NCBI GenBank assembly: GCA_041671485.1
Contig: JBAZBL010000003.1
Location: 25,412-89,411, forward strand
DNA: 64,000 nt
From: Minisyncoccota bacterium
GTDB lineage: Bacteria; Patescibacteriota; Minisyncoccia; Phycocordibacterales; PALSA-1337
Reading direction: 5' to 3'
Shown here piece by piece: positions 12,475 to 57,335 of the stretch. A model generated the notes under the pieces. The model saw only the letters and a program-made list of their open reading frames with translations, was not told the origin of the DNA and did no database searches. The translations under genes and the position numbers were made by a program. The stretch's first letter is position 1. Each line of letters opens with the position of its first letter.

Positions 12475-13504
12475 TATCTCTTGCCAACTTCTTATTGGTT
12501 AATCTTTCCTCATACAGTTTTTTCCCATTCTCTGCAAGGCTTCGTACTAATTGGGGTTGATTTTTCAATAATAAAATCTTTTCTGCCAAATCTTCTGGAT
12601 CACCACAATTGACCATAAGACAATTGACATTATCAGTCAATAATTCGCTAATTCCATTTGTACGACCTGTGATATAAGGAAGACCGAGAGCTAGTGTTTC
12701 GAAAGCTTTATGAGGAATAGTACGTTCCAATCTTTCATGAATTCCAAACTGCCCCAAAGAAACATGACATTCGAGCATTTTCTGTCTTACTTCATTGGGC
12801 AAAATATGTTCAGTGATCCATTTGAGATTTTTTGGTTTCAATTCATCTATACAAGATTTGATCTCTTCTTCTGTGCGTCCACTACCAATAATGAGAAATT
12901 CTATATCCTCATTTTCAAGAAGTTTTGCTGTTTGGACAACATATTGAATACCAGCTTCAGGCAAGAATTTGCCACGGAAAATAGCGGTGAACTTTTCCCT
13001 CTTTTCGACACTTGAATCTTCATGAAAAATTTCTTCATCGGCACCCGTTAGAACACACACAACCTTTTCAGCTTCCAATAAAAATCTTTTTATGAAATAT
13101 TCTTTCTGATGATTTGTCTCTACCAAAATAAGATCAGCCGACTTTGCTGACAACAAATCGATAAGCCTAATCCATAATCTCATGAAAGGGTTATAACGAT
13201 AACGACCACGAGAAATAACTTCACCTTCATATAGAGAACAAAGAGCGTCGAAAACAATAGGTTTACAAGAAATCATTTTTGCGAAAGATACAACAATATG
13301 TCCTGGATAACCAACAATCATCACATCATAACCGCCATTTTTTATAATCATTCTGTGTTTCTTCCATAATCTCCAATACTTGAGAAGTCCAAGCGAATCA
13401 TCATGACATTCTATAATTTCTATACCATTTTGCCTCAGACCAGAAATATAGACCTTATTACGGCCAAAGTTACTATTATATATACCAAAATAACATATTC
13501 TCAT
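12452..13504 (-). CDS. Glycosyltransferase family 1 (GT-B); paralog of 18144-19196
   Basis: N-terminus MRICYFGIYN...ISGLRQNGIEIIEC is near-identical in pattern to the ORF at 18144-19196. The C-terminal half has the GT1 E-x7-E region (ETLALGLPYI). Confidence 0.7.
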   Translation of the reverse strand: MRICYFGIYNSNFGRNKVYISGLRQNGIEIIECHDDSLGLLKYWRLWKKHRMIIKNGGYDVMIVGYPGHIVVSFAKMISCKPIVFDALCSLYEGEVISRGRYRYNPFMRLWIRLIDLLSAKSADLILVETNHQKEYFIKRFLLEAEKVVCVLTGADEEIFHEDSSVEKREKFTAIFRGKFLPEAGIQYVVQTAKLLENEDIEFLIIGSGRTEEEIKSCIDELKPKNLKWITEHILPNEVRQKMLECHVSLGQFGIHERLERTIPHKAFETLALGLPYITGRTNGISELLTDNVNCLMVNCGDPEDLAEKILLLKNQPQLVRSLAENGKKLYEERLTNKKLARDIIDCVQI

Positions 13505-13506
13505 AA

Positions 13507-14232
13507 TTATTTATTTATTAGTATCTTTCGCAATCGAGATTTCAATCTTAAAAGATCACAAAACATCCCTATGGAATCTTTAAATAAAGTTACTTTGGAT
13601 TCAGAACTATCTCGCCAAATGATATCTATAGAATCAATCTTATACTTATACCATTGTGATATGACTATAAGTTCAGTATCGAATATCCAAGTCCTTTCCT
13701 GAAGAAGAGGGGCAATCTTTTCGAAAGAACTTCTTTTCATGGCCTTGAAACCACATTGATGATCTGCGAGACGACTACCGAATAAACTACGAACAAAAAA
13801 ATTATAGAACCATGACGAGATCTTACGCACTTTTTTCTTGGATATAACTTGGGATTGTGGCCCAAGACGATTCCCTATTGCCATATCATTCCCTTTTATA
13901 GCAATCGAATCAATAAGTGGTCTAAAAAAATCGAGATCTGAAGACAAATCTATATCCATAAAAGAAAGTACATCAGCCTCACTTTTCATCCATGCAGTCC
14001 TGATCGCCAATCCTTTTCCTTTACCATCTATTTTCAGACTTTTAACATTATTATACTTTCTCGATAAATCACTACATATTAAAGGTGTACGATCTCTACT
14101 ACCATTATCTGCAAGAATAATAGAATAGTCATAAGGAAAAGAAGAAGACTTCAAATGTTCCACAAGCTTCATTATTGAGTCTGTCAATATCTTTTCTTCA
14201 TTATATAACGGAATAACGATATCTACCTTCAT
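13507..14232 (-). CDS. Glycosyltransferase family 2 (polyprenol-phosphate sugar transferase-like)
   Basis: MKVDIVIPLYNEE ... ILADNGSRD ... DIDLSSD are the classic GT2 motifs. Start set at the third ATG. Confidence 0.7.
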   Translation of the reverse strand: MKVDIVIPLYNEEKILTDSIMKLVEHLKSSSFPYDYSIILADNGSRDRTPLICSDLSRKYNNVKSLKIDGKGKGLAIRTAWMKSEADVLSFMDIDLSSDLDFFRPLIDSIAIKGNDMAIGNRLGPQSQVISKKKVRKISSWFYNFFVRSLFGSRLADHQCGFKAMKRSSFEKIAPLLQERTWIFDTELIVISQWYKYKIDSIDIIWRDSSESKVTLFKDSIGMFCDLLRLKSRLRKILINK

Positions 14233-18143: not shown

Positions 18144-19196
18144 TTATTTAGAAATATATTTAGATATTACAGCAACAAGTGATTTTGCGACAGGTGCAGG
18201 GAAATATCTCGATACTGCAATATAACCATTCTTGGCAAGACTTGCACATCTCTCTTTATCATTTGCTAACATCTTTATACCATCTACTATAGATTTAATG
18301 TCATTATTTACAAGTAATATTTCACTATCAGAAAAGATTTCTCTTATTGCAGGAGTATCCATAGTAATTACTACTCTACCTGACGCCAATCCTTCATATA
18401 CTTTATTTGGTACGGCCCTTTGCCCTTTTGCAGTATCACCAAATATACCTAATATTATATCAGCTTCTGCCATGTATTTATTTAATTCACTCGGTGGTAC
18501 TGGTGCTCTTGATACAAATTCAATATTCTCTAGTTTATAACTCTCGGCAAGATCCTTGGTTCTTTTATATTCTTGACCATTACCAATGAGTCGAAATCTA
18601 AGTTTGGGATTATCTGCACACAATCGTGCTACTTCAATTATCTTATTTGTCCCTTGAACTGGAATAAATTTTCCATGCCAATTGATCAATATATAATCTT
18701 TATTGATATATGGTAATGGATGATAAAGCTTATCATTGACACCTAGATATACTGCATGTATTTTATCTTTATTCACACCAAACCATGACAACCAATATTG
18801 TCTATTACCTTCTGTATCAGTTATAGATACATGTGAAAACATTATTCCAAGCCAGTCAAGAATGAGTAGTTTCATCGCTCTAGGATGCCACCACGCAATC
18901 TCCTTACGATCGTAGACTACGGCTTCAAACATAGAATAAAAAGCATCAGAAATTATAGGTTTTGATGATATGAGACGAGCAAGAATGGTTGCAACAGGAG
19001 AAGGATATGCAACATATACACAATCATAATCATTATGTAATGCACGAAGATTTTTCCAGAGTTCGAAATATCTTCTCTTATATCTCCAATCTTCCCTACA
19101 CTCTGTAACTTCAACACCTATCTCTCTCAATCCAGATAAAAGAATATTATTTCTAGAATATGTAGGATCATAAATACCAAAAAAACAAATTTTCAT
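18144..19196 (-). CDS. Glycosyltransferase family 1 (GT-B); paralog of 12452-13504
   Basis: MKICFFGIYDPTYSRNNILLSGLREIGVEVTEC shares its N-terminal pattern with the paralog. C-terminal VYEGLASGRVVI motif. Confidence 0.7.
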   Translation of the reverse strand: MKICFFGIYDPTYSRNNILLSGLREIGVEVTECREDWRYKRRYFELWKNLRALHNDYDCVYVAYPSPVATILARLISSKPIISDAFYSMFEAVVYDRKEIAWWHPRAMKLLILDWLGIMFSHVSITDTEGNRQYWLSWFGVNKDKIHAVYLGVNDKLYHPLPYINKDYILINWHGKFIPVQGTNKIIEVARLCADNPKLRFRLIGNGQEYKRTKDLAESYKLENIEFVSRAPVPPSELNKYMAEADIILGIFGDTAKGQRAVPNKVYEGLASGRVVITMDTPAIREIFSDSEILLVNNDIKSIVDGIKMLANDKERCASLAKNGYIAVSRYFPAPVAKSLVAVISKYISK

Positions 19197-25944: not shown

Positions 25945-26135
25945 TTTTGGATAATTGCAAGCAACATTTGATTTTTAGTTTTGGCAACCTGTTTGAGCGC
26001 AGTATAAATTTCTTGACAAAATACTGCTGTTAGCTGGAATTGCTCGATGTATGACATCGAGCAATTCCGCAAGTATTTTGTCTAGAAATTTAACGGAGCG
26101 AGTCTTGCCAAAACTAAAAATCAAATGTTGCTTGC
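25945..26135. repeat. Family A long nested palindromic repeat, copy 1
   Basis: Perfect 32-bp terminal inverted repeat (ttgcaagcaacatttgatttttagttttggcaa / ttgccaaaactaaaaatcaaatgttgcttgca). Inner perfect 15-bp IR (ggaattgctcgatgt-atg-acatcgagcaattcc). Conserved unpaired motifs tgagcg (left) and ggagcgagt (right). Confidence 0.6.
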
Positions 26136-26139
26136 ACTA

Positions 26140-27360
26140 TCACATATTCTCAAATATCTCATTCATCTTTTCTGCAACCATATCCCAATCATATTTTTGT
26201 CTGACCATCTCACTCGCCTGTCTTATGATATATTCTCGGGATTCTTTGTCTTTCATAAGCTTTTCTACTTTCTGTGCAATACTCTTTGGATTCTTAACCT
26301 CACAGAAAAGTCCAGTCTCACCATTCTGGAGGAAATCAACAATACCTCCAACTGGCGTTGCAATAACTGGAATACCCGCAGCCATCGCTTCTATAAATGA
26401 ATTGCCAAATCCTTCAGAAAGTGATGGACGTACAAATATATCAGACACTTGCAAATATTTTGGTAATTGATCGTGTGGAATATTCCCTAGGAATTGAACT
26501 CTCGATCCGAGGGTAGGCCCGCCTTCGGCGGGGTAGGCCTCGGGAACCACCTCCGACATCGCTTTCAATCTACTTTCTTCATAACCACTTCCCAATATCA
26601 ACAATTTGACATTTTCTGGCAAATATTGAAGAGAGTCAATAATGTCATTCACTGCATTTTTCACGACCAATCTGGATGTTGTTATGATGAAAATATCGTC
26701 TTTTTGCTTGCCCAATTGCCCTTTTAAGGCCTCTAAACGCCCACTAGAGACCTGTTTAGAGAAATAAGCATAATCTACACCATTTGGCACTATTTTCACC
26801 TCGCATTTGGCCCCCATATCTACAGCCCAATCTGCCAGATATTTTGATATTGTCTGAATACAATCTGCACGTCTAAATATCATTTTGAAAAGTGGATATA
26901 GTGGTCTAGCGCGTTTCTTGATATATGGTATAGGATCGCCATCTTGGAGAGTAAATATAAATGGGACTTTCGGATGAATGAGTTTGAAGAAAAGTGCAGC
27001 AAATGAATTGTATGTAGCCATAAGTGACCATATAGCATCGTATTTCTTTTTCCTATGAAGAGAGACTGCTTTCAGAAAACCAGTTATCAAGAAAGCATAT
27101 TTATTCAAATCTAAATACCAATGCAAAGAATCTGAAGAAGTTTTTTGCTTACCCGTCCAACCTACACGATATATATCAACATTCCCAATACGTTCAAATT
27201 TGGGCAAGCTAGAATCCAGATGCAAAGTCACCATGTCAAACTGGACATCATCTGTAGATATCCTATCTGTTATTTCTTTTATCGCTATCTCTGCCCCGCC
27301 TATATAACGTGGATAGTAGACTAGCGAAAATATGAGTATTTTGCGCATATCTTCATTCAA
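26140..27360 (-). CDS. Glycosyltransferase family 1
   Basis: GT-B; RVQFLGNIPHDQLPKYLQVSDIFVRPSLSEGFGNSFIEAMAAGIPVIATPVGG. Contains the GC-rich in-frame insertion at 26497-26553. Confidence 0.7.
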   Translation of the reverse strand: MNEDMRKILIFSLVYYPRYIGGAEIAIKEITDRISTDDVQFDMVTLHLDSSLPKFERIGNVDIYRVGWTGKQKTSSDSLHWYLDLNKYAFLITGFLKAVSLHRKKKYDAIWSLMATYNSFAALFFKLIHPKVPFIFTLQDGDPIPYIKKRARPLYPLFKMIFRRADCIQTISKYLADWAVDMGAKCEVKIVPNGVDYAYFSKQVSSGRLEALKGQLGKQKDDIFIITTSRLVVKNAVNDIIDSLQYLPENVKLLILGSGYEESRLKAMSEVVPEAYPAEGGPTLGSRVQFLGNIPHDQLPKYLQVSDIFVRPSLSEGFGNSFIEAMAAGIPVIATPVGGIVDFLQNGETGLFCEVKNPKSIAQKVEKLMKDKESREYIIRQASEMVRQKYDWDMVAEKMNEIFENM

Positions 27361-29120
27361 TCAACTTTCAAGACATTTTTCAAGACATATTCTGGAACTT
27401 CTTTTGGTTGTGGAGAACCATGATCAGTTGAATTATTTTGGACCTGATCTTTTGTATCATTTGGCTTTGGATTATTTAGTATTACAGGATTTGGCTTAAC
27501 ATTCTTGCTCATAATTGCTTGAAGCGCACTTTTCAATTCATTAACATTTTCTTTTGTCTGTACTTTGGGATCGCTCTTTAATTTATTTTTATTTAATACT
27601 GATAGTGGAGCAGGTTTAACATTTGTATTCATTGTATGTCCGTGTTGAATCGGCATATCATACTGTTTCTTTTGATGATTTATATTTGGGCTGACATTTG
27701 GTACTTCAACATTTTTTGGCACACTAGTACTACTGTAGTCAGTTTTGACAGGAATTGGAGGAATTGGCTTTGAAATATTTATAGTTTGATTTATAGGAAT
27801 TGACTTCAGTACTGATGGTGGTGCCACTTTTACAGGTGGTTCATGGAATTTGATGATTTCTTCCTCTACTCCTGCCCTCTTCCTTGCAAATTGCTCTCTC
27901 GAAGCCTCGATAATCTCTTTTACAAAGGATTCATCTGGCTGTGTTATGGGTGGTAATGTTACAGCAGAGAAAGGTGGTGATGTTAGTCCATCTATCATAA
28001 GTTTGAGATATACCTGTGCAAAGCCGAGATTTACCAAATCTTCTATGACAAATGTTGGCGAGAATTCTTTTTCCAATAATTCTGCATCTGTTGCACCTAC
28101 TCTAAATACAATCATTGTTCCAACGTTACCAAATACTGCAGCACAAACATCTTCATCCATTTGTTCGACATATTGATGTGCAATAGTTAGATTCAACTTG
28201 TATTTCCTAGCTTCTGACAAAATATCAGCAAAAGAAGCATTTGCAAAGTTTTGGAATTCATCTACATATAGATAGAAATTTGGCAACGCCTTTGCTATCC
28301 TATCCGGCGTATCAGCCCTAGACATTGCCGAGAGATATATCTTTGTTACAAGCATACCTCCTAGGAGCTTCATATTTTCATCACCTATCCTTCCTTTCGA
28401 AAGGTTTATTATCACAATCTTTTTAGAATCCATAGCTTCTCTAAAGTCAAAAGATGATTGTGGTTGACCTATCATATTCCTGATCAGAGGATTGGCTGTG
28501 AATTGACCAACTTTATTTTGTATAGCTGGTACAGCTTCGGCGGCCATGCGTTCTGTATAGTTAGCAAATTCTTTTGCCCAGAAGTTTTTGACCGATGGGT
28601 CTTTGATCTTGGAGACAATCTCTTTTCTATATTCTTTATCAGAGAGAATCCTATTTACCCCTAAAAGTGTTGAGCCAGGAACTTCGAGCAATGCCAAGAG
28701 AGTATTCGTCAATATGTATTCCATTCTGGCTGACCAAGCATCAACCCATATTTTCTTGAATGTACTCATGAGACCCGATACTACTAGATGCCTCTTGTCT
28801 ATATCTACACTCTCTAGAACATTGAATGATATCGGGTATTCAACATCAAATGGTGCAATATAGATAACATCTTTTATTCTTTCTTTTGGAACATATTCGA
28901 GAAGTAAGTCAGCAGTCTTGCCGTGTGGATCAATGAAGCATAGACCTTCGCCGGCCTGAATGTCCTGCACAGCCATATTCTCGAGCATTGTTGACTTGCC
29001 CATGCCTGTCTTACCTATGACATATACATGCTTCGTCCTGTCTTTTGCTTTGATACCAAATCTTACTCGTTTATTACGAGCATCTGTTTCTCCGAAATAT
29101 GTTATGCGATTTTCATCCAT
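27357..29120 (-). CDS. P-loop NTPase of the FtsK/HerA/TraD-VirD4 superfamily (possible type IV secretion coupling-protein-like ATPase) with a Pro/Asn-rich low-complexity C-terminal tail
   Basis: Walker A VIGKTGMGKST, FIDPHG, Walker B YLYVDEFQNF and TIAHQ. The last 170 aa or so are low-complexity and Pro/Lys/Asn-rich. Confidence 0.5.
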   Translation of the reverse strand: MDENRITYFGETDARNKRVRFGIKAKDRTKHVYVIGKTGMGKSTMLENMAVQDIQAGEGLCFIDPHGKTADLLLEYVPKERIKDVIYIAPFDVEYPISFNVLESVDIDKRHLVVSGLMSTFKKIWVDAWSARMEYILTNTLLALLEVPGSTLLGVNRILSDKEYRKEIVSKIKDPSVKNFWAKEFANYTERMAAEAVPAIQNKVGQFTANPLIRNMIGQPQSSFDFREAMDSKKIVIINLSKGRIGDENMKLLGGMLVTKIYLSAMSRADTPDRIAKALPNFYLYVDEFQNFANASFADILSEARKYKLNLTIAHQYVEQMDEDVCAAVFGNVGTMIVFRVGATDAELLEKEFSPTFVIEDLVNLGFAQVYLKLMIDGLTSPPFSAVTLPPITQPDESFVKEIIEASREQFARKRAGVEEEIIKFHEPPVKVAPPSVLKSIPINQTINISKPIPPIPVKTDYSSTSVPKNVEVPNVSPNINHQKKQYDMPIQHGHTMNTNVKPAPLSVLNKNKLKSDPKVQTKENVNELKSALQAIMSKNVKPNPVILNNPKPNDTKDQVQNNSTDHGSPQPKEVPEYVLKNVLKVD

Positions 29121-29240: not shown

Positions 29241-29266
29241 GTTGTCATTAGTACCACTGTGGCACA

Positions 29267-29479: not shown

Positions 29480-29499
29480 AACTTAACTAACGAACGTTA

Positions 29500-29575
29500 A
29501 CCGATTTTGATTTTGTATGTGCTTCCCACCCATCGAACAATCATCCGACTAGCACATGCTCCGAGTGAAGATAGT
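29500..29575 (-). promoter_or_regulatory. Putative sigma70-like promoter and long 5' leader for the small ORF
   Basis: - strand ttgcca-N17-actatc / tggtactat (extended -10-like) about 100 nt upstream of the ATG. Confidence 0.25.
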
Positions 29576-29608
29576 ACCACTTATGAAAAATATGGCAAGT
29601 GCATAACT

Positions 29609-29830
29609 ATTACTAATATTGTAGGCATCTAGGAAATATGAGTTTTCGCAAATCGAGGACTGTCTGAGCGACTAAAAATTGCTTGATAAAATGCGTAGGT
29701 TGCGGGAATTGCTACGATACTGAGGCATTTCTAATGCCGAAGTATCGAGCAATTCAATAGCATTTTATCTAGCAATTTAAGGAGCGAGTTCCGCAGATTT
29801 GCGAAAACTCATATTTCCTAGATGCCTACA
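29609..29830. repeat. Family A long nested palindromic repeat, copy 2
   Basis: Perfect 35-bp terminal IR (tgtaggcatctaggaaatatgagttttcgcaaatc and its reverse complement). Inner IRs aaattgcttgataaaatgc/gcattttatctagcaattt and gaattgctacgatact/agtatcgagcaattc. Shares actgtctgagcg and ggagcgagttccgcag motifs with the other copies. Confidence 0.6.
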
Positions 29831-31013
29831 TAGGAGACTCTTCGAGAAAAATCCTCTTATCATACACACTCCCTGCATTCCACAACATCCAACTATCGAA
29901 GCCAGCGTCATATGTCGCTTGCATTTGTTTCCTCACCATTTCTGGCGTATATGTTGCACCAAGGTTAAATGCTTGAAGCCATGGACGTAATTTGTTTGGT
30001 GTAGAAGAAGCATTGTATATTTTCACAAAAGCTTGATCCATAGAATATTTCACGACTTTATATGGTTCTGTAGCAGGTTTCTCTATACCGATAAAGCCAT
30101 ATGCAAAATGTGATGGATATACCATAGGACCAACATAGTCAAAATATATGAGAGCATCTTCTAGAACTTGACCAATACCCAAGTCACCACTAGCACTAGT
30201 CGTAAGCCCAAATAGATCCGCGGAGAGAACTGCTTTTGTTTCTGACATTTGCTGGCGCAGATATGCAAAGAAACTAGAAAGAATATTCGTTCTATGTGTT
30301 GTAGAACTTATATTATAAAGTATGTCTTTTATATTTCCATCAGATGGAAAACGTATATAGTCATAATTCAATTCATCGAAACCAATAGATGAAGCTTCTT
30401 TGGAAAGATCTACTATATAATCCCAAAATACTTTTGAACCAGGGTGAATATAAGCGAGACCCATATTGTCATGCCAAGACGATTCAGGATTGGATACTTT
30501 CTTTATAGCTGATTCAGGATACTTGGATGCATATAGAGGATCTTGGAATACTGTAATCCTAGCTATTACATATATACCCAATTCATGCAATTCATTTATA
30601 AATTCTGGAAAATCTTGTACGATACAACCTCTACCACGAGCATAATTCCCTACCGTCGTAGAAGAATACGATACTGTACCTGTATAGTCTTTTAGATCAA
30701 CAACGATACTATTCAATTCTGTTCCTTTGAAAAGTTCAATGGTTTTATTGCGCAATCTCTTTTCGCTAGCTGTACATGCGGTGATATATATAGCTTTGAC
30801 AGGAATGGGTGTAGCGATATGAGTGATGGTAGGTTTGGCAATAATATTATTGGTCAAAGTTGATACATCAATATCATCTGATGTATTTGAATATTTGATT
30901 ACGCCAATAGATGATATAAATATCAAATAAGAGAGTATTGCAAGAATAAAAAAAGCACCAACGATGACCGTGACAATTCGCGTTGCGCCAAACTTACGCC
31001 ACTCTTTTATCAT
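29826..31013 (-). CDS. Membrane-anchored putative glycoside-hydrolase-like (TIM-barrel) protein
   Basis: N-terminal TM anchor followed by a roughly 350-aa domain with alternating beta/alpha pattern and conserved acidic residues (GFDELNYDYIRFP). Family assignment is tentative. Confidence 0.35.
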   Translation of the reverse strand: MIKEWRKFGATRIVTVIVGAFFILAILSYLIFISSIGVIKYSNTSDDIDVSTLTNNIIAKPTITHIATPIPVKAIYITACTASEKRLRNKTIELFKGTELNSIVVDLKDYTGTVSYSSTTVGNYARGRGCIVQDFPEFINELHELGIYVIARITVFQDPLYASKYPESAIKKVSNPESSWHDNMGLAYIHPGSKVFWDYIVDLSKEASSIGFDELNYDYIRFPSDGNIKDILYNISSTTHRTNILSSFFAYLRQQMSETKAVLSADLFGLTTSASGDLGIGQVLEDALIYFDYVGPMVYPSHFAYGFIGIEKPATEPYKVVKYSMDQAFVKIYNASSTPNKLRPWLQAFNLGATYTPEMVRKQMQATYDAGFDSWMLWNAGSVYDKRIFLEESPM

Positions 31014-31015
31014 TT

Positions 31016-31276
31016 TTATATTTCGGATAATGGACGACTAATAATTGTTTCATCTCTTGTAGGAGGAGAAAGTGATTTTTCTTTATGTTCAATATATGGC
31101 AATGCTTCTTGATCGGCCTTACTCATCTCACGAGTAGTGCAAATCCTATAAGCCAAGAATATTATGAGAAGACCGATAAATATATATATTATATTGTCCC
31201 AAGTAGATGGAAAACCAAGATATGGTAATACCATAACGATGATTCCAAGAATTATTAACCATTGTCTTTTTGACAT
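31016..31276 (-). CDS. Small membrane protein (2 TM)
   Basis: 86 aa with two hydrophobic helices; tightly packed with the upstream gene. Confidence 0.4.
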   Translation of the reverse strand: MSKRQWLIILGIIVMVLPYLGFPSTWDNIIYIFIGLLIIFLAYRICTTREMSKADQEALPYIEHKEKSLSPPTRDETIISRPLSEI

Positions 31277-31334
31277 GTTGCAATTATAACCCGAAATGAT
31301 AGAATCGCGCTAGAAGGATAGTACGAAAAAAAAT

Positions 31335-31715
31335 ATGAATGAAATATCTGCGCAGATACCTGATGCAACATACTACAAGGTATGTATGTTTGGCACAGCG
31401 TTTGATGACAATTACGCTGGAGAATTGCGAAGTGCACATTTTGTGGAAAATGAGCTCCACGTAATCTTTCATTTTGTAACAAGGATACATAAGAGAGGTG
31501 ACCCTCCAAAGTGGCAGGTTGATGATAAGGGTAAGGTTATATGTGATTATGAGATCATCTTTGAGGGTTGTGTGGTCTTGGAAAATAATGGTATAGACCG
31601 CATCAAAGTCAAATCTACACAGGGAGATGTTGTAACCCTTTCCTCTACGAAACAAGACATTGCGATTGTCCACGAATTGATCGAGAATGCACTTGAGATC
31701 ATACGCAGTCGTTAG
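31335..31715 (+). CDS. Hypothetical protein
   Basis: 126-aa ORF with a downstream hairpin terminator; no recognisable motif. Confidence 0.4.
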   Translation: MNEISAQIPDATYYKVCMFGTAFDDNYAGELRSAHFVENELHVIFHFVTRIHKRGDPPKWQVDDKGKVICDYEIIFEGCVVLENNGIDRIKVKSTQGDVVTLSSTKQDIAIVHELIENALEIIRSR

Positions 31716-31721
31716 CAAAGC

Positions 31722-31753
31722 CACGTCTATTCAATTTCACTGACGTGGCTCTT
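31722..31753 (+). terminator. Hairpin terminator (agccacgtc...gacgtggct followed by cttttatttgg)
   Basis: 9-bp stem with a T-rich tail immediately after the stop of 31335-31715. Confidence 0.45.
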
Positions 31754-32560
31754 TTATTTGGAAACTATTACTACAAATTCACCGCGGACTTTATCGGAAT
31801 TCAATTCAAAATATTTCACAACTTCATCTACCGAACCACTGACTACTTCTTCGAATATTTTTGTAAGTTCTCTGCATACAGTTATTTTCATCGATTTTTG
31901 AATATCTTCATAGTATGCATGGCAACAGTCTCGTAACGAAGCCGACACCCCCCGACGAGACTTAACAGCGTGGTGCGATGCGTCTCGGAGGGGGGTAGTC
32001 GGCGAAGTTATCGAGATTGTTGCCAATGACTTCAGCGTCTTCAATATCCTATGTGGTGATTCGTAGAAAATCATGGTTCGTTTTGATGCAATAATTTCTT
32101 TTAGCAAAGTCTCTTTCCCCTTCTTATGAGGCAAAAATCCCAAGAAGGTGAAATCATTGTGAGATATTCCTGCAATAGAAAAAGCAGAGATGAGAGCAGA
32201 TGGACCAGGAATAGATTCTATTTTCAATTCATTTTCTTCTATCTCTTTTGCACATTCTTTCCTGATCCTCGCTACAAGCTCCGAACCAGGATCAGATATA
32301 CATGGTGTACCTGCGTCAGAGACAAGAGCAAGATTTTTGCCAGATTTCAAAAGTCCTATTATCTCCTCTACTCGCGAAAGTCTACTATGCATATGATATG
32401 AAAGTGTATGTGTTTTGATCTCATATTTATCGAGAAGTTTGCGTGTGACTCTGGTATCTTCGCACAATATCAAGTCCACATTCTTGAGTACTTCAATAGC
32501 CCGAAGTGTGATATCACCGAGATTGCCAATTGGAGTGCCAACGACAGATAAAGTAGACAT
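31754..32560 (-). CDS. rsmI: 16S rRNA (cytidine1402-2'-O)-methyltransferase RsmI, carrying an in-frame GC-rich palindromic insertion
   Basis: MSTLSVVGTPIGNLGDITLRAIEVLKNVDLILCEDTR ... YESPHRILKTL ... CRELTKIFEE tetrapyrrole-methylase-fold motifs. About 37 extra residues sit between LKSL and KITVCRELTK. Confidence 0.75.
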   Translation of the reverse strand: MSTLSVVGTPIGNLGDITLRAIEVLKNVDLILCEDTRVTRKLLDKYEIKTHTLSYHMHSRLSRVEEIIGLLKSGKNLALVSDAGTPCISDPGSELVARIRKECAKEIEENELKIESIPGPSALISAFSIAGISHNDFTFLGFLPHKKGKETLLKEIIASKRTMIFYESPHRILKTLKSLATISITSPTTPLRDASHHAVKSRRGVSASLRDCCHAYYEDIQKSMKITVCRELTKIFEEVVSGSVDEVVKYFELNSDKVRGEFVVIVSK

Positions 32561-32601
32561 AATAAAATGTTATTTAATTCGTTTAATAAAATTACTTTCA
32601 T

Positions 32602-33150
32602 CTACTCCTGATGAATGATATTTGTCAAAATAGCGTATTCATCCTTTTCCTTGACTTCATTATCTTTCCAATAATCTGTAAGATTATTCCGGATTTCCTG
32701 CCCCATCATTCTTTGTTGAATCCATTTTTGACTTCGTCCCATTCCCTGCCAATAATGTCTACTACGATTGAGCGCCTTTTCTGGGTCGTTTATTTCTTCG
32801 ATTCTTTCATAACCCACTTTCGCCAACCACAATTTGAACGGCTCAGCTTTTGGTGATGGGATTGACTGGATTACACGAAACATCGTCTCCGTATCAGCCG
32901 CATCTGTTAGATAAAATTTACCATCCGCAGCTCGCATTTTCAGTTGGTTACATTTTGTAACCACCTCACTTCCTTCTTGTTTTAAGCGGTTTTTCAACAC
33001 TTTCCAATAATTTCTCGGATTTTCACTAGCATTGAGCGCACCAACCACATCAACCACCGAAAAATACCATAACTCTTTTTCCTCATCCCAAATCCTGCGT
33101 ATTTTTTTGCCTTCGAATATGGCTAACTTATTTGATTTCATGATTACCAC
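32602..33150 (-). CDS. Bro-N domain protein, DinD-like (DNA-damage-inducible protein D / phage antirepressor-like)
   Basis: FEGKKIRRIWDEEKELWYFSVVDVVGAL (Bro-N) and IQSIPSPKAEPFKLWLAKVGYERIEEINDPE, as recalled for DinD-like proteins. Confidence 0.6.
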   Translation of the reverse strand: MVIMKSNKLAIFEGKKIRRIWDEEKELWYFSVVDVVGALNASENPRNYWKVLKNRLKQEGSEVVTKCNQLKMRAADGKFYLTDAADTETMFRVIQSIPSPKAEPFKLWLAKVGYERIEEINDPEKALNRSRHYWQGMGRSQKWIQQRMMGQEIRNNLTDYWKDNEVKEKDEYAILTNIIHQE

Positions 33151-33230
33151 TCTACCATACTCTTCACATCCATCAACTGAAATTTAACAATCATTTTACA
33201 TTTATCCATTTAGACACTAATATAGGTACT

Positions 33231-34460
33231 ATGTCTGCAAACGAACCAACAAACCGTATCGTTTATGTAACCCGCGACATCGAACGCGCTTTGGGTGTTT
33301 TGCCAAATGATAACTATATGATTGTCTCAAATAAGACTTCATACTCCGAAAAGATATTGAAAAATTTGAATAATACAAACAATTCGATTGGAAACAATAT
33401 TCTTTTAATTGAAAATGCGACCATTCTTGACACTGCAGAACTATTAGAACAGAACAAGGTACGAGATTATATCAATCAGAACGATTCTACAGTTTTGGTT
33501 TTTAAGAATACTTCGCTGATTGAAGATATCGTCAAAAAGAATGGCTGGAATTTACTCAATCCTCCATCCACATTAGCGGAAAAATATGAGAATAAGATCA
33601 CACAAGTCGAATGGCTCGGAGAATTGGCGAAATATTTACCACCACACTCTATTTCACTTGCTAAAAATTTGAAATGGTCCGACCAACCTATTGTCGTCCA
33701 GTGGGCGCACGGACATACAGGAGATGGAACTATTCTTGTAAATTCTCAAAAGGAACTTGATACCATTCAAGCAAAGTTTCCAGAAAGGTTGGCTCGAGCC
33801 ACAACTTTTATCAACGGACCTTCATTTACCGTTAATATGGTAGTGGCACCAAATACTATCTTAATTGGAAATATTAGTTATCAGATAACAGGTCTCCCAC
33901 CATTTACAGATAACCGATTCAGCACGATTGGTAATGATTGGGGGAAAATCGTACCAGCGTTACTCAATAAATCAGAGGTTGAATATATCCATCAAATAGC
34001 GCGAGAAATTGGTGAAAAAATGCACAAGGATGGTTGGAAAGGACTTTTTGGTATTGATATTATCAAAGAAGAAAAGACTGGTAAAATCTTTCTAATAGAG
34101 ATAAATGCTAGACAACCAGCTTCGACGACTTTTGAATCACAGTTGCAATCAAGATACGGAGGTCAGACCTCCGTATTCGAAGCACATTTACTTGCTTTGC
34201 AAGATATACAAATAGAAAGACCCATAATTGAGATCGAGGAGGGCGCGCAGATAATTCAAAGGGTTACAAAAGATATTACAAATATTTCAAAGAGTGTGAT
34301 CGACTCTCTGGAATCATCCGGATACAATGTTATTGCATATTCAAATACAGAGATAAATTCAGATCTTGTCAGGATACATAGTAATAAAGGGATAATCTCT
34401 AAACACAATCAATTTAATGAAGCGGGTGAGAAAATCAGAGCTTGCATTATTGGAAAATAA
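33231..34460 (+). CDS. ATP-grasp domain protein
   Basis: Central ATP-grasp pattern (IVVQWAHGHTGDGTILV ... GLFGIDIIKEEKTGKIFLIEINARQPAS). Confidence 0.6.
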   Translation: MSANEPTNRIVYVTRDIERALGVLPNDNYMIVSNKTSYSEKILKNLNNTNNSIGNNILLIENATILDTAELLEQNKVRDYINQNDSTVLVFKNTSLIEDIVKKNGWNLLNPPSTLAEKYENKITQVEWLGELAKYLPPHSISLAKNLKWSDQPIVVQWAHGHTGDGTILVNSQKELDTIQAKFPERLARATTFINGPSFTVNMVVAPNTILIGNISYQITGLPPFTDNRFSTIGNDWGKIVPALLNKSEVEYIHQIAREIGEKMHKDGWKGLFGIDIIKEEKTGKIFLIEINARQPASTTFESQLQSRYGGQTSVFEAHLLALQDIQIERPIIEIEEGAQIIQRVTKDITNISKSVIDSLESSGYNVIAYSNTEINSDLVRIHSNKGIISKHNQFNEAGEKIRACIIGK

Positions 34461-34492
34461 TCTGATAAAGAATTAATATAGTACCAACCACC

Positions 34493-35290
34493 ATGAACAC
34501 CAAAACGCTCTCATCTCGCGCCCTATCTGTTATTGATCAATATCGCCATTTCGCTGTAGGTAGTGCAGTGTGTAATGTTCCATATTTCAATAATAAAGCC
34601 TCTCGCGCACGAGCAACTCTCCGCACATACGGTGGCAAAGGAAGTCCAAAAGATATTTTTGAAGAAGTTCAAGGACTAATGATAAAGAGTCATATTTCTC
34701 CAAGTCTTTTGAATGATGAAGCATTGAAGAAAATGCTAGTAGAAAATAATATTGGTATAGATTGTTCTGGCTTTGCATACTATGTTCTAAATGCAGAAAA
34801 TGAAGAGCGTGGCTATGGATCGCTCGATAAACATATTCATTTTACCAGTTGCAAAGGAATAGTTGGCAAGATACGATGTCACTTTCGACCAGTAGAGAAT
34901 TGTGATGTGGCAACATTTGCAAATGATAAAAATAGTCGAATAATTGCTATAAAAGAAATACAAGTTGGAGATGTGATAACAATGCTTGCAAAAATAGATT
35001 CCAATAGTGATACCCAGATCCGCAACACTGAACGTGATCATATTCTAATCATTCATCAGGTTGATTATCAAAATTTTGTGCCAATAAAGATTTATTATAG
35101 TCACACAGTTGCATATCCAGAAGATGGTCTATATGGAACAGGCGTGAAGCAAGGTAGTATAGAAATACTCGATTTAAACAAATCAATTACCGAACAGAGT
35201 TGGAGTGAAAATGAAAGTGATACAAACAATCGCATCTTCAATAGAGCTCAAATATCAAATACAGAAGTTAGGAGAGTGATAAAGGATTGA
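34493..35290 (+). CDS. Hypothetical protein with a possible papain-like Cys/His (NlpC/P60-type) motif
   Basis: GIDCSGFAYYVL Cys motif and a later ILIIHQ His; weak assignment. Confidence 0.35.
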   Translation: MNTKTLSSRALSVIDQYRHFAVGSAVCNVPYFNNKASRARATLRTYGGKGSPKDIFEEVQGLMIKSHISPSLLNDEALKKMLVENNIGIDCSGFAYYVLNAENEERGYGSLDKHIHFTSCKGIVGKIRCHFRPVENCDVATFANDKNSRIIAIKEIQVGDVITMLAKIDSNSDTQIRNTERDHILIIHQVDYQNFVPIKIYYSHTVAYPEDGLYGTGVKQGSIEILDLNKSITEQSWSENESDTNNRIFNRAQISNTEVRRVIKD

Positions 35291-35295
35291 TACAA

Positions 35296-35466
35296 ATCAG
35301 GAAAAGGTTATGTCATTTCGTGAATCGAGTACTGTCCGAGCGTAGTCATTCGACTAGTATTTCCCAAAAGATGAGGCCGTTTATGTCCGAGAGGCCGAGT
35401 CTTTTGTGGAAATACAGGAGAATGACGCAAGCGAGTTACGCAGATTCACGAAATGACATAACCTTT
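35296..35466. repeat. Family A long nested palindromic repeat, copy 3
   Basis: Perfect 29-bp terminal IR (caggaaaaggttatgtcatttcgtgaatc / gattcacgaaatgacataaccttttcctg). Interior shares gtactgtccgagcg and gcaagcgagttacgcagatt motifs with copies 1 and 2. Confidence 0.6.
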
Positions 35467-35529
35467 TCCTGAGACTCATTCAAGGTTCTATAATCGCCAA
35501 AAACAGCTTTTTATGGTATCCTTTTTGTC

Positions 35530-36657
35530 ATGTTAACATTCCTGCAAGGAACTGCCGATCTGGCCTATATCCTCGGTTTTGCGATTATTGGGGCTGTCGT
35601 AGCTTTTGCTTGGGCACCACTCCTCACCAAATTCCTATATCAATTCAAGATCGTAAAAGGAGCAAAAGTTGAGCTTTCAAATCTCGGCTCTCATGCTTAC
35701 AAAGCTCAAACTCCTGTAATGGGTGGTTTACTAGTCATAATAACAACAGCAGTTGTAACTTATACTCTCAATTGGTCAAGAGGTTTCACTTGGGTACCAG
35801 TAGGTATCATGATTATGGCAGCACTTTTGGGATTTATTGATGATCTCATGAATGTATACGGTGCAGAGCGCCGTTCGCGCAAACTATCTCATATTTGGAA
35901 CTTGATACGTATTCACAAAGACTTTCGAATGCGTGTCTGGTATTTTATTACATTACCGTGGACTGCTTTCAAGCGCATTTCTGTTTGGTTCGGTTCGCGC
36001 ACTAGACGTGGAGTATTTGTACACGAGAAATTGATACTACAATTCATCGCAGGAACGATAGCCGCATATTGGATATATTCCAAGCTCGGACCTGCTTGGC
36101 ACTATGTCTATTTCCCATTCGGGTTCGAATGGTTGGCAGGCTGGATAATCGTACCAATAATGATCTTTGTAATCATGTTCACAGCAAATGCAGTAAATAT
36201 TGCAGATGGTATGGATGGTCTGGCTGGTGGAATGTTGATCACCACTTTCAGCGCTTTAACATTTTTGAGCTGGATCAATGGCTTCGGAGAAATTGCAATC
36301 CTAAATGCCACCCTCGTAGGCGCCTTGGCTGTTTATACATATTTCAATATCAAACCTGCACGATTTATGATGGGTGATGTTGGCTCTTTAGGCTTGGGAG
36401 CTTTGCTTGCGGTCAATGCACTTGCAATAGGTGAAATGCCATCTCTCATTTTCCTCGGCTTTATGTTCTATGTAGAAGCAGGATCAGTAGTCATACAAGT
36501 GATATCTAGATATTTATTTGGCAAGAGGATATTTGCTATGGCTCCTCTTCATCACCATTTTGAGATCAGAGGATGGAGTGAAGAGAAGACTGTTATGCGT
36601 TTTTGGGTTGTTCACTTTATCTTCGTAGTATTTGGTTTTTGGTTGGCATTACATTGA
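35530..36657 (+). CDS. mraY: Phospho-N-acetylmuramoyl-pentapeptide transferase MraY
   Basis: Polytopic membrane protein with NAVNIADGMDGLAGG and the MGDVGSLGLGA motifs of the MraY/WecA family. Confidence 0.7.
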   Translation: MLTFLQGTADLAYILGFAIIGAVVAFAWAPLLTKFLYQFKIVKGAKVELSNLGSHAYKAQTPVMGGLLVIITTAVVTYTLNWSRGFTWVPVGIMIMAALLGFIDDLMNVYGAERRSRKLSHIWNLIRIHKDFRMRVWYFITLPWTAFKRISVWFGSRTRRGVFVHEKLILQFIAGTIAAYWIYSKLGPAWHYVYFPFGFEWLAGWIIVPIMIFVIMFTANAVNIADGMDGLAGGMLITTFSALTFLSWINGFGEIAILNATLVGALAVYTYFNIKPARFMMGDVGSLGLGALLAVNALAIGEMPSLIFLGFMFYVEAGSVVIQVISRYLFGKRIFAMAPLHHHFEIRGWSEEKTVMRFWVVHFIFVVFGFWLALH

Positions 36658-53960: not shown

Positions 53961-54992
53961 TTAAAATGACCGCAGATATTCCTCAAGCAATCGGTCATAT
54001 ATTGGTTGCAATATGCACTGATAATTATAGGCATTACCATGCTTTAACATACCCAAATAAGACGAGACTGTTTCGAACTTTGGCTCGTTATTGCATTTAT
54101 TCATCATTCTTCTTCTGGTAGTTGTCCTTAACACCCGATGATCTGGAAAGTGTATCCAGCCCAAAAAGTCAACGCCCGAAGCAAAAGTCTTGAGAAATGT
54201 TTTGTCGGGATGTAATGACAAATGGAGTTTTTCTTTCAAAAATTGGTCCATATCTGTAAGCATAGATAAAAGTAATTTGTGATCAGTGTTAAGGATTACA
54301 AAATCATCGGCATAACGAATATAGTATTTGACTTTGATTTTATGCTTCATGAATTGATCGAATTTATTCATGTAAATATTCGCGAATAATTGAGAAGTTA
54401 AATTTCCTAGTGGCATACCAACATTTGGGTCACCCGAATGAAAACTGTTTATTATTTGATCTAACAGATGAAGAATGTCCCGGTCGGGAATATAGGAATT
54501 GAGTATGTCAAATAATATTTGATGATCTATTGAAGCAAAGAACTTTCTAATATCACATTTCAAAACCCAAACAGTTTTTGTATGATTGCACGATGCTTGT
54601 CTGGCAAACTCGCTAAATTTTTTGAAGGCTCTATGTGTACCTTTGTCGATCCTACAAGAATATGAATCAGAGATGAAAGTTCGGTCAAAGAATGGGTATA
54701 GTTTCCTGTAAAGTGCTCGATGTAAAATTCGATCTCTTACAGTAGCTTTATGGATATTACGAGGTTTGGGATCATTGATTTTGAAGGGCATATATGGACC
54801 ATGTACAAATGTTCTATTTTTCAAATCTTTGTGGAGTTGTAATAGGTGTCTCATTAACTGTAATCGAAATTCAGCTACATCTTCCCTTCTGTCTTTGTCG
54901 GCTGAAAATTCATTCCACGCCTCTAGTAAATTCTCAATGGATATGATAGCTTCGTAGTTATGGCTGAATTGAATTCGTCCCATATTTCTCAT
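53961..54992 (-). CDS. Diversity-generating retroelement (DGR) reverse transcriptase
   Basis: 343 aa; RT motifs including PLGNLTSQLFANIYM (the DGR-type I/LGxxxSQ motif rather than the group II QGxxxSP) and YIRYADDFVIL (YADD). Lies directly downstream of the TR on the same strand. Confidence 0.85.
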   Translation of the reverse strand: MRNMGRIQFSHNYEAIISIENLLEAWNEFSADKDRREDVAEFRLQLMRHLLQLHKDLKNRTFVHGPYMPFKINDPKPRNIHKATVRDRILHRALYRKLYPFFDRTFISDSYSCRIDKGTHRAFKKFSEFARQASCNHTKTVWVLKCDIRKFFASIDHQILFDILNSYIPDRDILHLLDQIINSFHSGDPNVGMPLGNLTSQLFANIYMNKFDQFMKHKIKVKYYIRYADDFVILNTDHKLLLSMLTDMDQFLKEKLHLSLHPDKTFLKTFASGVDFLGWIHFPDHRVLRTTTRRRMMNKCNNEPKFETVSSYLGMLKHGNAYNYQCILQPIYDRLLEEYLRSF

Positions 54993-55017
54993 AATACCCC
55001 CCCCACGGTTTTTACCA

Positions 55018-55404
55018 GTTGTCGAAAAGCTTAAATCAAGCTACAAACTTTGGCATGAATATCACGGACTCGTACCGAAAACACAAAGATATTCGCTTGG
55101 CAATAGAATAGATAATCTCTTAGTAGAAAGCATCGAAGCGACAGTAACTGCGACATTTTTATCAAAAGAAGAGAAATTACCGTGGATACGACTGGCAATT
55201 CGAAAAACCGATACATTGAAAGTTTTACTCATGATTTTATGGGAAACTAAATCAATAGATGATAAAAAATATATTGCTCTTTCTGTGAAATTAGATGAGG
55301 TCGGCAAGATGCTCGGTGGTTGGAGTGGACAGCTTATAAAATCTACCTCTACTAAAACTATAGTGAATAAACAAAACTCTCCAGCAAAAGCAGGAGAGAA
55401 ATGA
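55018..55404 (+). CDS. Avd-like four-helix-bundle protein (accessory variability determinant family) on the opposite strand to the RT; no canonical start codon as sequenced
   Basis: Frame open from 54973 to the TGA at 55402-55404. Translation ...KLKSSYKLWHEYHGLVPKTQRYSLGNRIDNLLVESIEATVTATFLSKEEKLPWIRLAIRKTDTLKVLLMILWETKSIDDKKYIALSVKLDEVGKMLGGWSGQLIK matches the 23S-rRNA-IVS/Avd four-helix-bundle pattern. An ATG at 54960 is one frame off, across a C8 tract. Confidence 0.45.
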   Translation, partial: VVEKLKSSYKLWHEYHGLVPKTQRYSLGNRIDNLLVESIEATVTATFLSKEEKLPWIRLAIRKTDTLKVLLMILWETKSIDDKKYIALSVKLDEVGKMLGGWSGQLIKSTSTKTIVNKQNSPAKAGEK

Positions 55405-55412
55405 AGAGAGTC

Positions 55413-55534
55413 GCCGACACCGCCGCAGGGTTGTTGTCTTTGAAGTCGTTGTCAAGCCAGTTGTAGTTCCAGTCCCACCTGCCGCCGTTCCAGTTGAGGT
55501 AACGAACATAGAGGTTGTCATCGGCGCTGCGGTA
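55413..55534 (-). repeat. DGR template repeat (TR)
   Basis: 122 nt aligning gap-free with 55861-55982. All 17 differences are at TR adenines (sense = - strand). The TR sense strand is rich in AAC codons. Confidence 0.85.
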
Positions 55535-55778
55535 TCGTATGAAGCACCATCCATACCACCACCCCTCGGATACCCTCAGGGCTGAATCGTATTTGGCATC
55601 GTAATGCCTTAGCACCTCATACCAAGTATTTTCATTTTTTAATGAAGTTCTGCATACACCACTCTACCCAAAATCTTGGTCGTGGATATTCTCGATGTAT
55701 GGATACTGGTTTCGGTAGCAAGCAACATTAGTCGCTCACATATTCACCTACTCCCGCCACATCTTACCATATAAATCA

Positions 55779-55802
55779 GCCCCGCGCGTTGTCGCACGGG
55801 GC
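55779..55802 (-). other. GC-rich stem-loop downstream of the VR (candidate DGR homing-enhancing hairpin/cruciform)
   Basis: gccccgcgcg-ttgt-cgcacggggc: 10-bp stem (one C-A mismatch) with a 4-nt loop, about 58 nt beyond the IMH-like end of the VR. Confidence 0.45.
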
Positions 55803-55853
55803 CAAGGTCAAAGGTCACAGGTTCTGAAGAACAAAGTGACTGATGTTCAAGAG

Positions 55854-56474
55854 CTAACTTGCCGACACCGCCGCAGGGTCGAGGCCCCTGAAGTCGTTGT
55901 CAAGCCAGCGGCAGTTCCAGCCCCACCTGCCGCCGCCCCAGCGGAGGCAACGAACATAGAGGTCGTCATCGGCGCCGCGGTAGATGGTCCCCCAGAAGAA
56001 GATGTAGCGGGTGTTTCCGTTTTCATCCTTTTTCCATGCCTCGGGAATGAGGTGCGGGTTCTTCAGGAGATAATCCAAAACATTGGCGTTGAGGACTCGT
56101 TGCTTGGCGAGTTCCTTGCGCAGGTCATTGCCACGGATGGCATTGCCTTTCTTCTGGAGCTTGGACAACCAAAACTCGATTTTCTTGCCATCGAGATAGA
56201 GGTCGTCTCCACGGCATTCGAGCTTGGCAACCTTGCCACTCTGGTGTTCTTCCACCTTCCAGCCGTCAGGAAGGTAGGGGTCGGCACCGAGGTCAATGGC
56301 GTGTTCGATAGGCTTGATTTCATACAAACCCAGTTGGACACCCCTCACACGACCGAGGAAATCCCCGACAGTGAGCGCTTTGACTTCTTCCAGCGATTGG
56401 AAGCCGTTGCGGTTGAGCGCATGCTCGATTTCTTGAGCCAAACCAACACCGAGCGTTAACTTTATATTATCCAT
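55854..56474 (-). CDS. DGR target (variable) protein, 206 aa, with C-terminal VR
   Basis: Intact ORF whose last 40 codons or so are the VR. GC content is far above the genomic background. No obvious signal peptide. Confidence 0.8.
   Translation of the reverse strand: MDNIKLTLGVGLAQEIEHALNRNGFQSLEEVKALTVGDFLGRVRGVQLGLYEIKPIEHAIDLGADPYLPDGWKVEEHQSGKVAKLECRGDDLYLDGKKIEFWLSKLQKKGNAIRGNDLRKELAKQRVLNANVLDYLLKNPHLIPEAWKKDENGNTRYIFFWGTIYRGADDDLYVRCLRWGGGRWGWNCRWLDNDFRGLDPAAVSAS
55861..55982 (-). repeat. DGR variable repeat (VR) at the 3' end of the target gene
   Basis: Cognate of the TR. Encodes YRGADDDLYVRCLRWGGGRWGWNCRWLDNDFRGLDPAAVSA, against TR-encoded YRSADDNLYVRYLNWNGGRWDWNYNWLDNDFKDNNPAAVSA. 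Confidence 0.85.
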
Positions 56475-57179: not shown

Positions 57180-57335
57180 TAAAAAGCTTGGTGAAATATC
57201 TCTCGAGCCAACACGCAATGCGATCTGAGCCATGAACAAATTGCCCGTATTTGCCGAATCCTTGTAGGCAAATACGGTGCAATTTGGAATGGCGACCTTG
57301 CGTGGAGGCGAGGGAGATATTTCACCAAGCTTTTT
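57180..57335. repeat. Family B structured palindromic repeat, copy B (bidirectional terminator-like)
   Basis: Homologous to 39202-39358 with covarying stems (gcttggtgaaatat/atatttcaccaagc versus gcccaacgaaatat/atatttcgtcgggc; ccgtatttgcc/ggcaaatacgg versus cccatatttgct/agcaaatatgg). T-runs on both strands. Confidence 0.6.

Follow-up and report, generated by a model that had tools for sequence, protein, structure and literature searches.

The window, by which we mean the whole 64-kb stretch of DNA analyzed here, carries a long hairpin element that lies flush between the gene for a conserved hypothetical protein of 265 aa (hyp265), whose stop codon lies 6 nt before the outer stem, and mraY. This element, copy 3 of a repeat family, is a 176-bp unit in which two 30-nt arms with 100% complementarity enclose a 116-nt core (Table 1). 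The original prediction had described it as a 171-bp unit at 35296-35466 with perfect 29-bp arms; the perfection of the arms stands, whereas the extent does not, as the unit starts 1 nt later and runs on for another 6 nt. Folded as a single strand, copy 3 reaches -98.3 kcal/mol versus -42.3 +/- 3.9 kcal/mol for 200 shuffled sequences (z = -14.5), none of which (0/200) is as stable. An ORF of 61 aa coincides with the palindrome and had rightly been called its artefact. We reject it as a protein gene because no ORF runs across copies 1 and 2 and because conservation in the element tracks base pairing, not codons.

Table 1. Coordinates of the hairpin elements and of the other features discussed (positions in the window unless a contig is named)
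Feature	Position	Strand	Basis or remark
Copy 3, complete hairpin element, 176 nt	35297..35472	+	complementarity, fold, R1 score
P1 5' arm of copy 3, outer stem, 30 nt, TCAGGAAAAGGTTATGTCATTTCGTGAATC	35297..35326	+	100% complementary to 35443-35472
P1 3' arm of copy 3, outer stem, 30 nt	35443..35472	+	complementarity to 35297-35326
J1 5' strand of copy 3, conserved asymmetric loop, GAGTACTGTCCGAGCGTA	35327..35344	+	pattern match 35332-35342, R1 alignment
J1 3' strand of copy 3, conserved loop, GCAAGCGAGTTACGCA	35427..35442	+	pattern match, R1 alignment
Inner hairpin peculiar to copy 3, not canonical P2/P3	35345..35426	+	predicted fold; unaligned 68-nt insert in R1
Interior motif CTGTCCGAGCG in copy 3	35332..35342	+	pattern match; same motif at 29660-29670 (copy 2) and 25989-25999 (copy 1)
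Interior motif CAAGCGAGTTACGC in copy 3	35428..35441	+	pattern match; same motif at 29781-29794 (copy 2) and 26095-26108 (copy 1)
Spurious ORF over the palindrome, TTG start, 61 aa	35287..35472	+	ORF list
Upstream neighbor, conserved hypothetical, 265 aa (hyp265)	34493..35290	+	stop 6 nt before P1
Downstream neighbor, MraY (Glycos_transf_4)	35530..36657	+	
Copy 1, 32-nt perfect arms, short-J1 subtype	25956..26136	+	R1 113.4 bits
Copy 2, 35-nt perfect arms, canonical type	29620..29830	+	R1 138.9 bits
Copy 4, divergent, imperfect arms (87%)	57181..57335	+	R1 17.7 bits (match 57205-57311), directly 3' of pyruvate kinase
VirD4/TraG-like ATPase gene	27357..29120		between copies 1 and 2
Imperfect inverted-repeat pair, 83% complementary	13269..13543		no R1 match
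Imperfect inverted-repeat pair, 74% complementary	18198..18450		no R1 match
DGR	53961..56474		
RT gene of the DGR	53961..54992	-	
DGR repeat pair (template/variable), 122 nt	55413..55534 and 55861..55982		86% identical
DGR target ORF, 206 aa	55854..56474	-	
Hairpin with 21-nt arms and 7-nt loop	56549..56597		just upstream of the DGR target gene
J1-core hairpins, imperfect outer and unrelated inner stems	L028:585-795, L063:320-510, L066:290-500, L116:1775-1985		
Adlercreutzia trmD permuted J1 units	L130:1700-1965, L141:1215-1600		

On the plus strand, an element of the family measures 150-230 nt and is laid out as P1, J1, P2, J2 and P3. P1 is an outer stem of 30-37 bp with a copy-specific sequence, P2 is an inner stem of ~20 bp that contains a conserved U.U mismatch in canonical copies, J2 is a second asymmetric loop and P3 is the apical hairpin. 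What do the copies have in common? The shared core is the asymmetric internal loop J1 and not the palindrome, a point that the original prediction missed. J1 is an 11 x 7-nt loop located between two long covarying helices, with 5' (CGAGGA)CUGUYUGAGCG(A) opposite 3' (G)AGCGAGUY(CCGCAG), and it breaks the palindrome because GAGCG is present as a direct repeat on both arms. As read from the alignments and the variant members, J1 probably consists of short helices around a 3-nt UGA bulge together with G.A pairs. In the likely pairing scheme, the 2-bp helices U4-A5'/Y5-G4' and G9-C3'/C10-G2' flank the U6-G7-A8 bulge and are accompanied by a G11.A1' pair and by position 12/0', which covaries as A.G, U-A, C-G and A-U. 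The scans of sequence collections required J1 strings, and thus the invariance of J1 is partly built in; members found by the covariance model alone (L009:3535-3716 and copy 4) vary in J1. However, positions outside the search pattern (CGAGGA, CGCAG) are conserved too. Hand threading of J1 onto the hammerhead, hairpin-ribozyme, sarcin-ricin, box C/D and attC cores gave no fit. In a kink-turn, tandem G.A/A.G pairs follow directly on the 3-nt bulge, with the C-stem on its other side; in J1 threaded by hand, the tandem G.A candidates (G11.A1', A12.G0') lie two Watson-Crick pairs from the UGA bulge, and no standard register fits.

Copy 3 retains P1 and J1 of the family and contains an inner hairpin of its own. 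In its J1, GUA replaces the family GGA on the 5' strand and UAC replaces UCC on the 3' strand, which constitutes a compensated change, and its P1 resembles, by eye, the inner part of the copy 2 P1. The covariance model R1, built from 16 members, scores copy 3 at 49.8 bits on the plus strand and 6.9 bits on the minus strand. The apex of copy 3 (35383-35400) repeats TGTCCGAG of its own J1 and continues with GGCCGAGTC, either by chance or perhaps as a remnant of a second unit that was nested or has collapsed.

The window contains three clear copies of the hairpin and one divergent copy, all of which R1 places on one strand. The original prediction of a genuine repeat family is borne out, given that the same two interior motifs occur on the plus strand in 3/3 copies and that R1, although built mostly from other genomes, recovers exactly these three copies and one weak fourth in the window. 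Its interior strings are present in copy 3 and matched by copy 2 (and copy 1), and its description of different termini around a shared core agrees with the arm sequences, which differ, and with the motifs, which are common to copies 1-3. The R1 match to copy 4 has an E value of 0.015 when the whole window is searched and of 7.7e-5 when the search is local. Copy 4 retains UCUGAGC / GGCGA and the start of P2, and it lies just 3' of pyruvate kinase, as do the copies in L083 and L122. It starts exactly at the 3' end of a pyruvate kinase gene (57181-58381 region) that encodes 348 aa and lacks the PK_C domain; the orthologues of relatives have 471 aa and contain PK_C. In relatives, pyk adjoins radC, and the two genes are ~14 kb apart in the window.

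The first 27 kb of the window is a polysaccharide biosynthesis cluster. A scan of all 51 ORFs of at least 100 aa found no transposase, recombinase, invertase, integrase or Y1 gene, and the RT of a DGR is the only mobile-type enzyme in the window. Related RT cassettes are found elsewhere in the relatives L136, L137 and L140, beside the hyp265 gene. In the Taylorbacteria relative L140 (5892-8833), Y1 transposase, RT and HicA toxin genes are inserted between ATP-grasp and hyp265, and no hairpin accompanies them. A link between the element and the Y1 transposase or RT genes near the orthologous site (L136, L140) was rejected for the lack of linked hairpins. In several Paceibacterota relatives, the VirD4/TraG-like ATPase gene shares a conserved gene order with DUF4015, mraY and mur genes and therefore does not mark an obvious conjugative island. 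Two further inverted-repeat pairs, with 23-nt arms 207-229 nt apart, are located in the glycosyltransferase gene cluster.

How far does the family extend? It reaches far outside this genome, its stems covary and its core inverts between strains, all of which goes beyond the original prediction. A scan of one genome per species for the two motifs separated by an 85-115-nt gap returns 118 stretches, most of which are chance matches in high-GC genomes and were removed by demanding flanking complementarity. Nine of the 118 come from three Saccharibacteria MAGs and two other Patescibacteria MAGs, and most of these nine have 32-37-nt perfect arms whose sequence differs between loci. Nine more canonical copies are contributed by a metagenome scan. 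The variant L009:3535-3716, from a Saccharibacteria MAG, is a second, divergent copy 3 kb from the first, with a 34-nt perfect stem and the J1 strands UUGUUUGAGUA / UUGCGAGUCUGC. The same J1 also occurs with unrelated helices in Clostridia/Bacillota MAGs (L028, L063, L066, L116), where the outer stem of the four copies is imperfect, and in the Blautia MAG contig L036. The former MAGs are labelled Bacillota bacterium (MAG.222) and Clostridia bacterium (MAG.191) and hold several such hairpins, and those of L028 and L063 lie near two-component system genes. At the gathering score, the only Rfam match in the window is one tRNA, and relaxed searches (E <= 10 over 25800-35600, E <= 1 over seven relatives) return only sub-threshold matches to microRNA-precursor and sRNA hairpins. 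Viral contig scans yield two chance matches in high-GC phage contigs and nothing else, BLAST against phages and plasmids gives no match to the element, and a literature search by organism, concept and motif strings found no description of it. Seven contigs (L001, L009, L016, L036, L096, L125, L135) end within a few hundred bases of an element, and L001 ends inside one, which suggests that the palindrome breaks short-read assemblies.

In trmD of Adlercreutzia (Coriobacteriia), the two J1 strands appear in frame and in reverse order, a circular permutation that closes P1 with a loop and leaves the other helix open. The in-frame insertion varies by strain from one to three permuted J1 units (TrmD of 293, 315, 326, 331 or 364 aa), and in the strain with the 364-aa TrmD, the two units differ from each other in their self-complementary outer helix and in their capped P1. 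Translation of the J1 string gives ERGLSER in one unit and, in another frame, SEDCLSES in a second; thus, it is conserved at the level of the nucleic acid and not of the protein. The alignments of these units show that J1 is retained whichever helix is capped, and the units provide the strongest argument that the junction itself matters.

Base pairing in the family is maintained by compensatory change. The original prediction had proposed a multiple alignment with covariance analysis as its check, and the alignment of 16 sequences shows that the stems do covary, with 93% of cells paired and 26 of the 40 pairs changed on both sides. None of 500 shuffle controls reaches any of five measures, and pairing falls to 32-54% when the partners are slid by 1-3 columns. 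Of the two strands, the named one gives the more stable fold in 19 of 22 copies, G.U outnumbers A.C in P1 by 9 to 2, and pair 23-162 in J1 is C-G in nine copies and U.G in seven. At the level of alignments and predicted folds, these data show a real structured family whose junction is conserved across phyla and whose fold is selected as a single strand, on one defined strand. However, G.T wobbles are tolerated in single-stranded DNA too, so RNA is not proven, and covarying arms are also expected from DNA-level arm conversion without selection on RNA.

P1 is almost purely Watson-Crick. Among 572 P1 pairs from 18 copies (17 from Patescibacteria and L036), 557 are Watson-Crick, 9 are G.U, 2 are A.C and 4 are other mismatches, and the window and Saccharibacteria copies contain no non-Watson-Crick P1 pair at all. 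The P1 sequence is very different between copies, even between orthologues; in L098 and L125, 29 of 36 arm positions are identical and both stems are perfect. In two pairs of strains, the core lies in opposite orientations. L009 and L020 are identical at 347/350 and 787/800 flanking positions, and their 120-nt cores agree at 119 positions when one is inverted and at 88 in direct alignment; the cores of L098 and L125 agree at 115/126 positions inverted and 80/126 direct. Three comparisons of near-identical contigs (L031/L126/L133, L083/L124 and the window/L001) reveal no flip. Judged from strains with 98-99% identical flanks, the core thus inverts between the P1 arms. The scarcity of wobbles, the fast and fully compensated divergence and the flips would all be explained by arm-to-arm recombination or hairpin-templated strand switching, DNA-level processes that would keep the arms identical and flip the core. 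If such arm homogenization operates, the asymmetry of J1 and the U.U mismatch must be kept by selection, which would hold J1 asymmetric against the homogenizing process.

The copies have no constant neighbor gene. They lie flush between housekeeping genes (hyp/mraY, G6PD/mraZ, tpiA/pgk, pyk/radC, radC/113aa-murD), adjoin tyrS or separate glycosyltransferase genes, and those between the co-directional genes tpiA/pgk, pyk/radC and hyp/mraY lie a few nucleotides from stop codons. L088 was considered as an orthologue of the copy 3 locus and discarded, since its neighbors are tpiA and pgk. Five Saccharibacteria contigs (L009, L020, L096, L098, L125) have a copy beside the same 113-aa and MurD genes, with flanks of ~76-99% identity, and RadC lies on the other side in L020 and L098. 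The window comes from a Candidatus Paceibacterota MAG, whose relatives belong to the Taylorbacteria. In L136, the closest of them (88% protein identity), the orthologous hyp/mraY spacer contains only the 5' arm followed by CGAGGACTGTCTGA, the spacer of more distant relatives is 27-46 bp, and what is left in L138 of the copy 2 element is a degenerate 3' half. The elements at the copy 3 and copy 2 sites are therefore old there and are lost in relatives by partial deletion, and given that close relatives lack intact copies at the same sites, no copy is essential.

What is the molecule that folds? We tentatively propose, as a reading with close to an even chance of being correct, that the family is a new structured interspersed element that acts as RNA inside operon transcripts, with arms homogenized and core flipped by arm recombination or template switching. 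The folding molecule would be RNA made within the surrounding polycistronic transcripts. There P1, a long and perfect duplex, would either be cut by double-strand RNases such as RNase III or block exonucleases, and J1 may be the recognition site for a conserved protein or RNase. The main weakness of the RNA reading is that about half of the copies are antisense (the orientation relative to neighboring genes is ~50:50 across loci) and that no sigma-70-type promoter was found. Read-through of an antisense copy would yield the less stable complement. Scans of copies 1-3 and of two relatives for sigma-70-type promoters and intrinsic terminators returned no consistent site within or beside the element. 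The TTGnnA hexamer of P2 and the TATAAAT by J1 were rejected as a promoter because neither has a correctly spaced partner and copy 3 lacks both.

With half of the copies antisense and no such promoter, the element may instead act as single-stranded DNA or be nothing but selfish. A selfish mobile palindrome of the MITE, REPIN or RPE type, whose hairpin would form in single-stranded DNA and whose J1 would be bound or cut by a trans-acting enzyme such as an HUH/Y1 transposase, is in our estimate unlikely. Its copies would spread to new intergenic sites and occasionally into genes, in line with their clustering (four copies in 64 kb, two within 3.2 kb in L009), the occupation of different spacers of one syntenic cluster by lineage (pyk/radC versus radC/113aa), the patchy cross-phylum distribution with a near-identical J1, the in-frame insertion with a variable number of units in Adlercreutzia trmD and the decay of copies in relatives. 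However, the copies do not have conserved termini and show no target-site duplication, the 64-kb window encodes no transposase, recombinase or RAYT, real matches are lacking in viral contigs, phages and plasmids, and the Y1_Tnp gene of the related genome L140, which could be counted in its favor, has no flanking hairpins. Moreover, J1 and the compensated stems are kept at one orthologous site while the flanks drop to ~76-86% identity, which is more like in-situ selection than decay. It is even less probable that the hairpin is a single-stranded DNA signal for replication or transfer, such as a priming site or an sso/Frpo-type hairpin promoter, a role that we regard as extremely improbable. The inversions between close strains are hard to square with dependence on replication direction, although the hairpin is strand-specific and the window copies all lie on the same strand. 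The TTGnnA hexamer with its conserved T.T mismatch in P2 has no -10 partner at the right spacing, and that P2 is absent from copy 3, L036 and the Clostridial copies. The VirD4-like ATPase gene between copies 1 and 2 would suit transfer, but it belongs to conserved core synteny, and most copies elsewhere are not near one.

Do the flips themselves have a function? The perfect P1 arms could allow frequent inversion of the strand-specific core, so that loci would toggle between functional and non-functional states and flanking genes would be expressed heterogeneously, a switch that acts as an inverton flipping an RNA structure and not a promoter. We consider this quite unlikely, and we give no better chance to its more specific form, in which one orientation would place a functional J1 (a protein or RNase recognition site or a new catalytic core) in the operon transcript and the other its inert complement. 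The inversion between strains with 98-99% identical flanks and again in the second pair, the perfect repeats around a strongly asymmetric core, the ~50:50 orientation and the location of three window copies in a cell-envelope gene cluster (glycosyltransferases, mraY, mur genes) are consistent with a switch, but the inversion is possibly a mere by-product of any inverted repeat. The core contains no consistent sigma-70-type promoter or intrinsic terminator and no invertase lies nearby, one site-specific recombinase cannot recognize repeats that differ between loci, the three near-identical contig comparisons lack a flip, and the outer stems of the Clostridial relatives are imperfect. A trans-acting small RNA family, for which P1 would be the processing stem and cleavage would free a stable J1-P2-P3 RNA of ~120-150 nt from any passing transcript, is distinctly unlikely. 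A trans-acting RNA would not usually have several divergent paralogues per genome that differ in their inner hairpins (copy 3, L036), copies are readily lost and half of them would release the wrong strand; on the other side, this proposal accounts for strand-specific fold selection and for a conserved core beside a freely varying processing stem, and it needs no dedicated promoter or terminator. Finally, J1 could be the core of a new self-cleaving ribozyme class between two helices, which we judge very improbable. Its ~30 conserved nucleotides in a junction with freely varying flanking helices, natural circular permutation and tandem units, and multiple copies across phyla are traits typical of small ribozymes such as the hammerhead and twister. 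No Rfam ribozyme model matches, however, even at E <= 10, J1 does not fit the hammerhead or hairpin-ribozyme cores by hand, a two-helix junction without a tertiary partner is unlike known classes, and a trmD coding region that is apparently functional contains two of the units.

The genomes of Patescibacteria are tiny and leave hardly any DNA to spare; even so, this lineage carries several hairpins of 180-210 nt and about -100 kcal/mol between its core genes. The same ~30-nt loop is met again in Clostridia and, within an essential gene, in a gut actinobacterium. Functional RNA modules are usually recognized by just such a combination of a constant junction with changing helices, circular permutation and one-strand folding. 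Should J1 bind a conserved factor or prove catalytic, it would represent an RNA motif that is both new and widespread; should the inversions take place within populations, they would constitute a new kind of switch, and reduced genomes with few regulators would gain heritable, reversible expression variation of neighboring genes were that switch real. In practical terms, the elements account for spurious ORF calls and may add to assembly breaks.

The family shares only the general behavior of intergenic hairpin repeats with the ERIC/Correia, RPE, REPIN and inverton systems and departs from each in its defining features. It resembles the ERIC/IRU and Correia (NEMIS/CREE) elements of enterobacteria and Neisseria, which are co-transcribed and measure 100-200 bp, in forming long intergenic hairpins in either orientation, and it has the general traits of such MITEs, being short, non-coding, multi-copy, hairpin-forming, intergenic and present in either orientation. 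The hairpins of Correia elements are cut by RNase III and affect how stable the mRNA is. However, the conserved part of ERIC and Correia elements is the terminal inverted repeat, whereas the termini here are copy-specific (the P1 arms of the 18 copies differ, with loose compositional similarity only) and the conserved part is an internal asymmetric loop. Furthermore, Correia elements make a TA duplication, whereas the flanks of copy 3 (ACAAA/GACTC), copy 1 (ATAAT/CTATC) and copy 2 (AATAT/TAGGA) contain no direct repeat. The Rickettsia palindromic elements are likewise palindromic, reside in small genomes and also occur in frame within protein genes, reminiscent of Adlercreutzia trmD, but have no sequence relationship to the element; we know of no RPE with a shared asymmetric core, circular permutation or inversion. 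REPINs are hairpin-forming doublets with compensatory evolution, a presumed single-stranded action and long maintenance, but each of their two ends is a conserved REP unit with a GTAG-type head, and such units flank a RAYT gene, whereas the ends here are variable and neither the window nor the surroundings of any copy contain a Y1 gene.

An inverton is similar in that inverted repeats surround a short segment found in both orientations among close strains (L009/L020, L098/L125). It differs in its internal promoter, nearby invertase and repeats common to loci, whereas the invertible segment here is a near-palindrome with a conserved RNA-like motif. Three other known systems were set aside. An integron attC requires conserved R''/R' ends, a variable centre and arrays next to intI; the element, with variable ends and a conserved centre, is the opposite, and no integrase lies in the window. 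The non-coding RNA of a retron msr-msd adjoins its reverse transcriptase; here, the only RT lies ~18 kb from copy 3 in a DGR with TR/VR repeats, and no copy elsewhere is beside an RT. 6S RNA is encoded by a single gene and has a large central bubble, whereas the 64-kb window has four copies of the element, its loop measures no more than 11 x 7 nt and Rfam 6S does not match. Hammerhead and twister ribozymes share the conserved junction, variable helices and natural circular permutations, but no model matches and the element has two helices only. T7-type RNase III processing signals and rRNA stalks consist of two helices split by a conserved asymmetric internal loop and lie between cistrons. The layout of the element is alike, with far longer stems and no sequence similarity. 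What is new about this interspersed hairpin repeat is that it conserves an internal RNA-like junction and not its ends.
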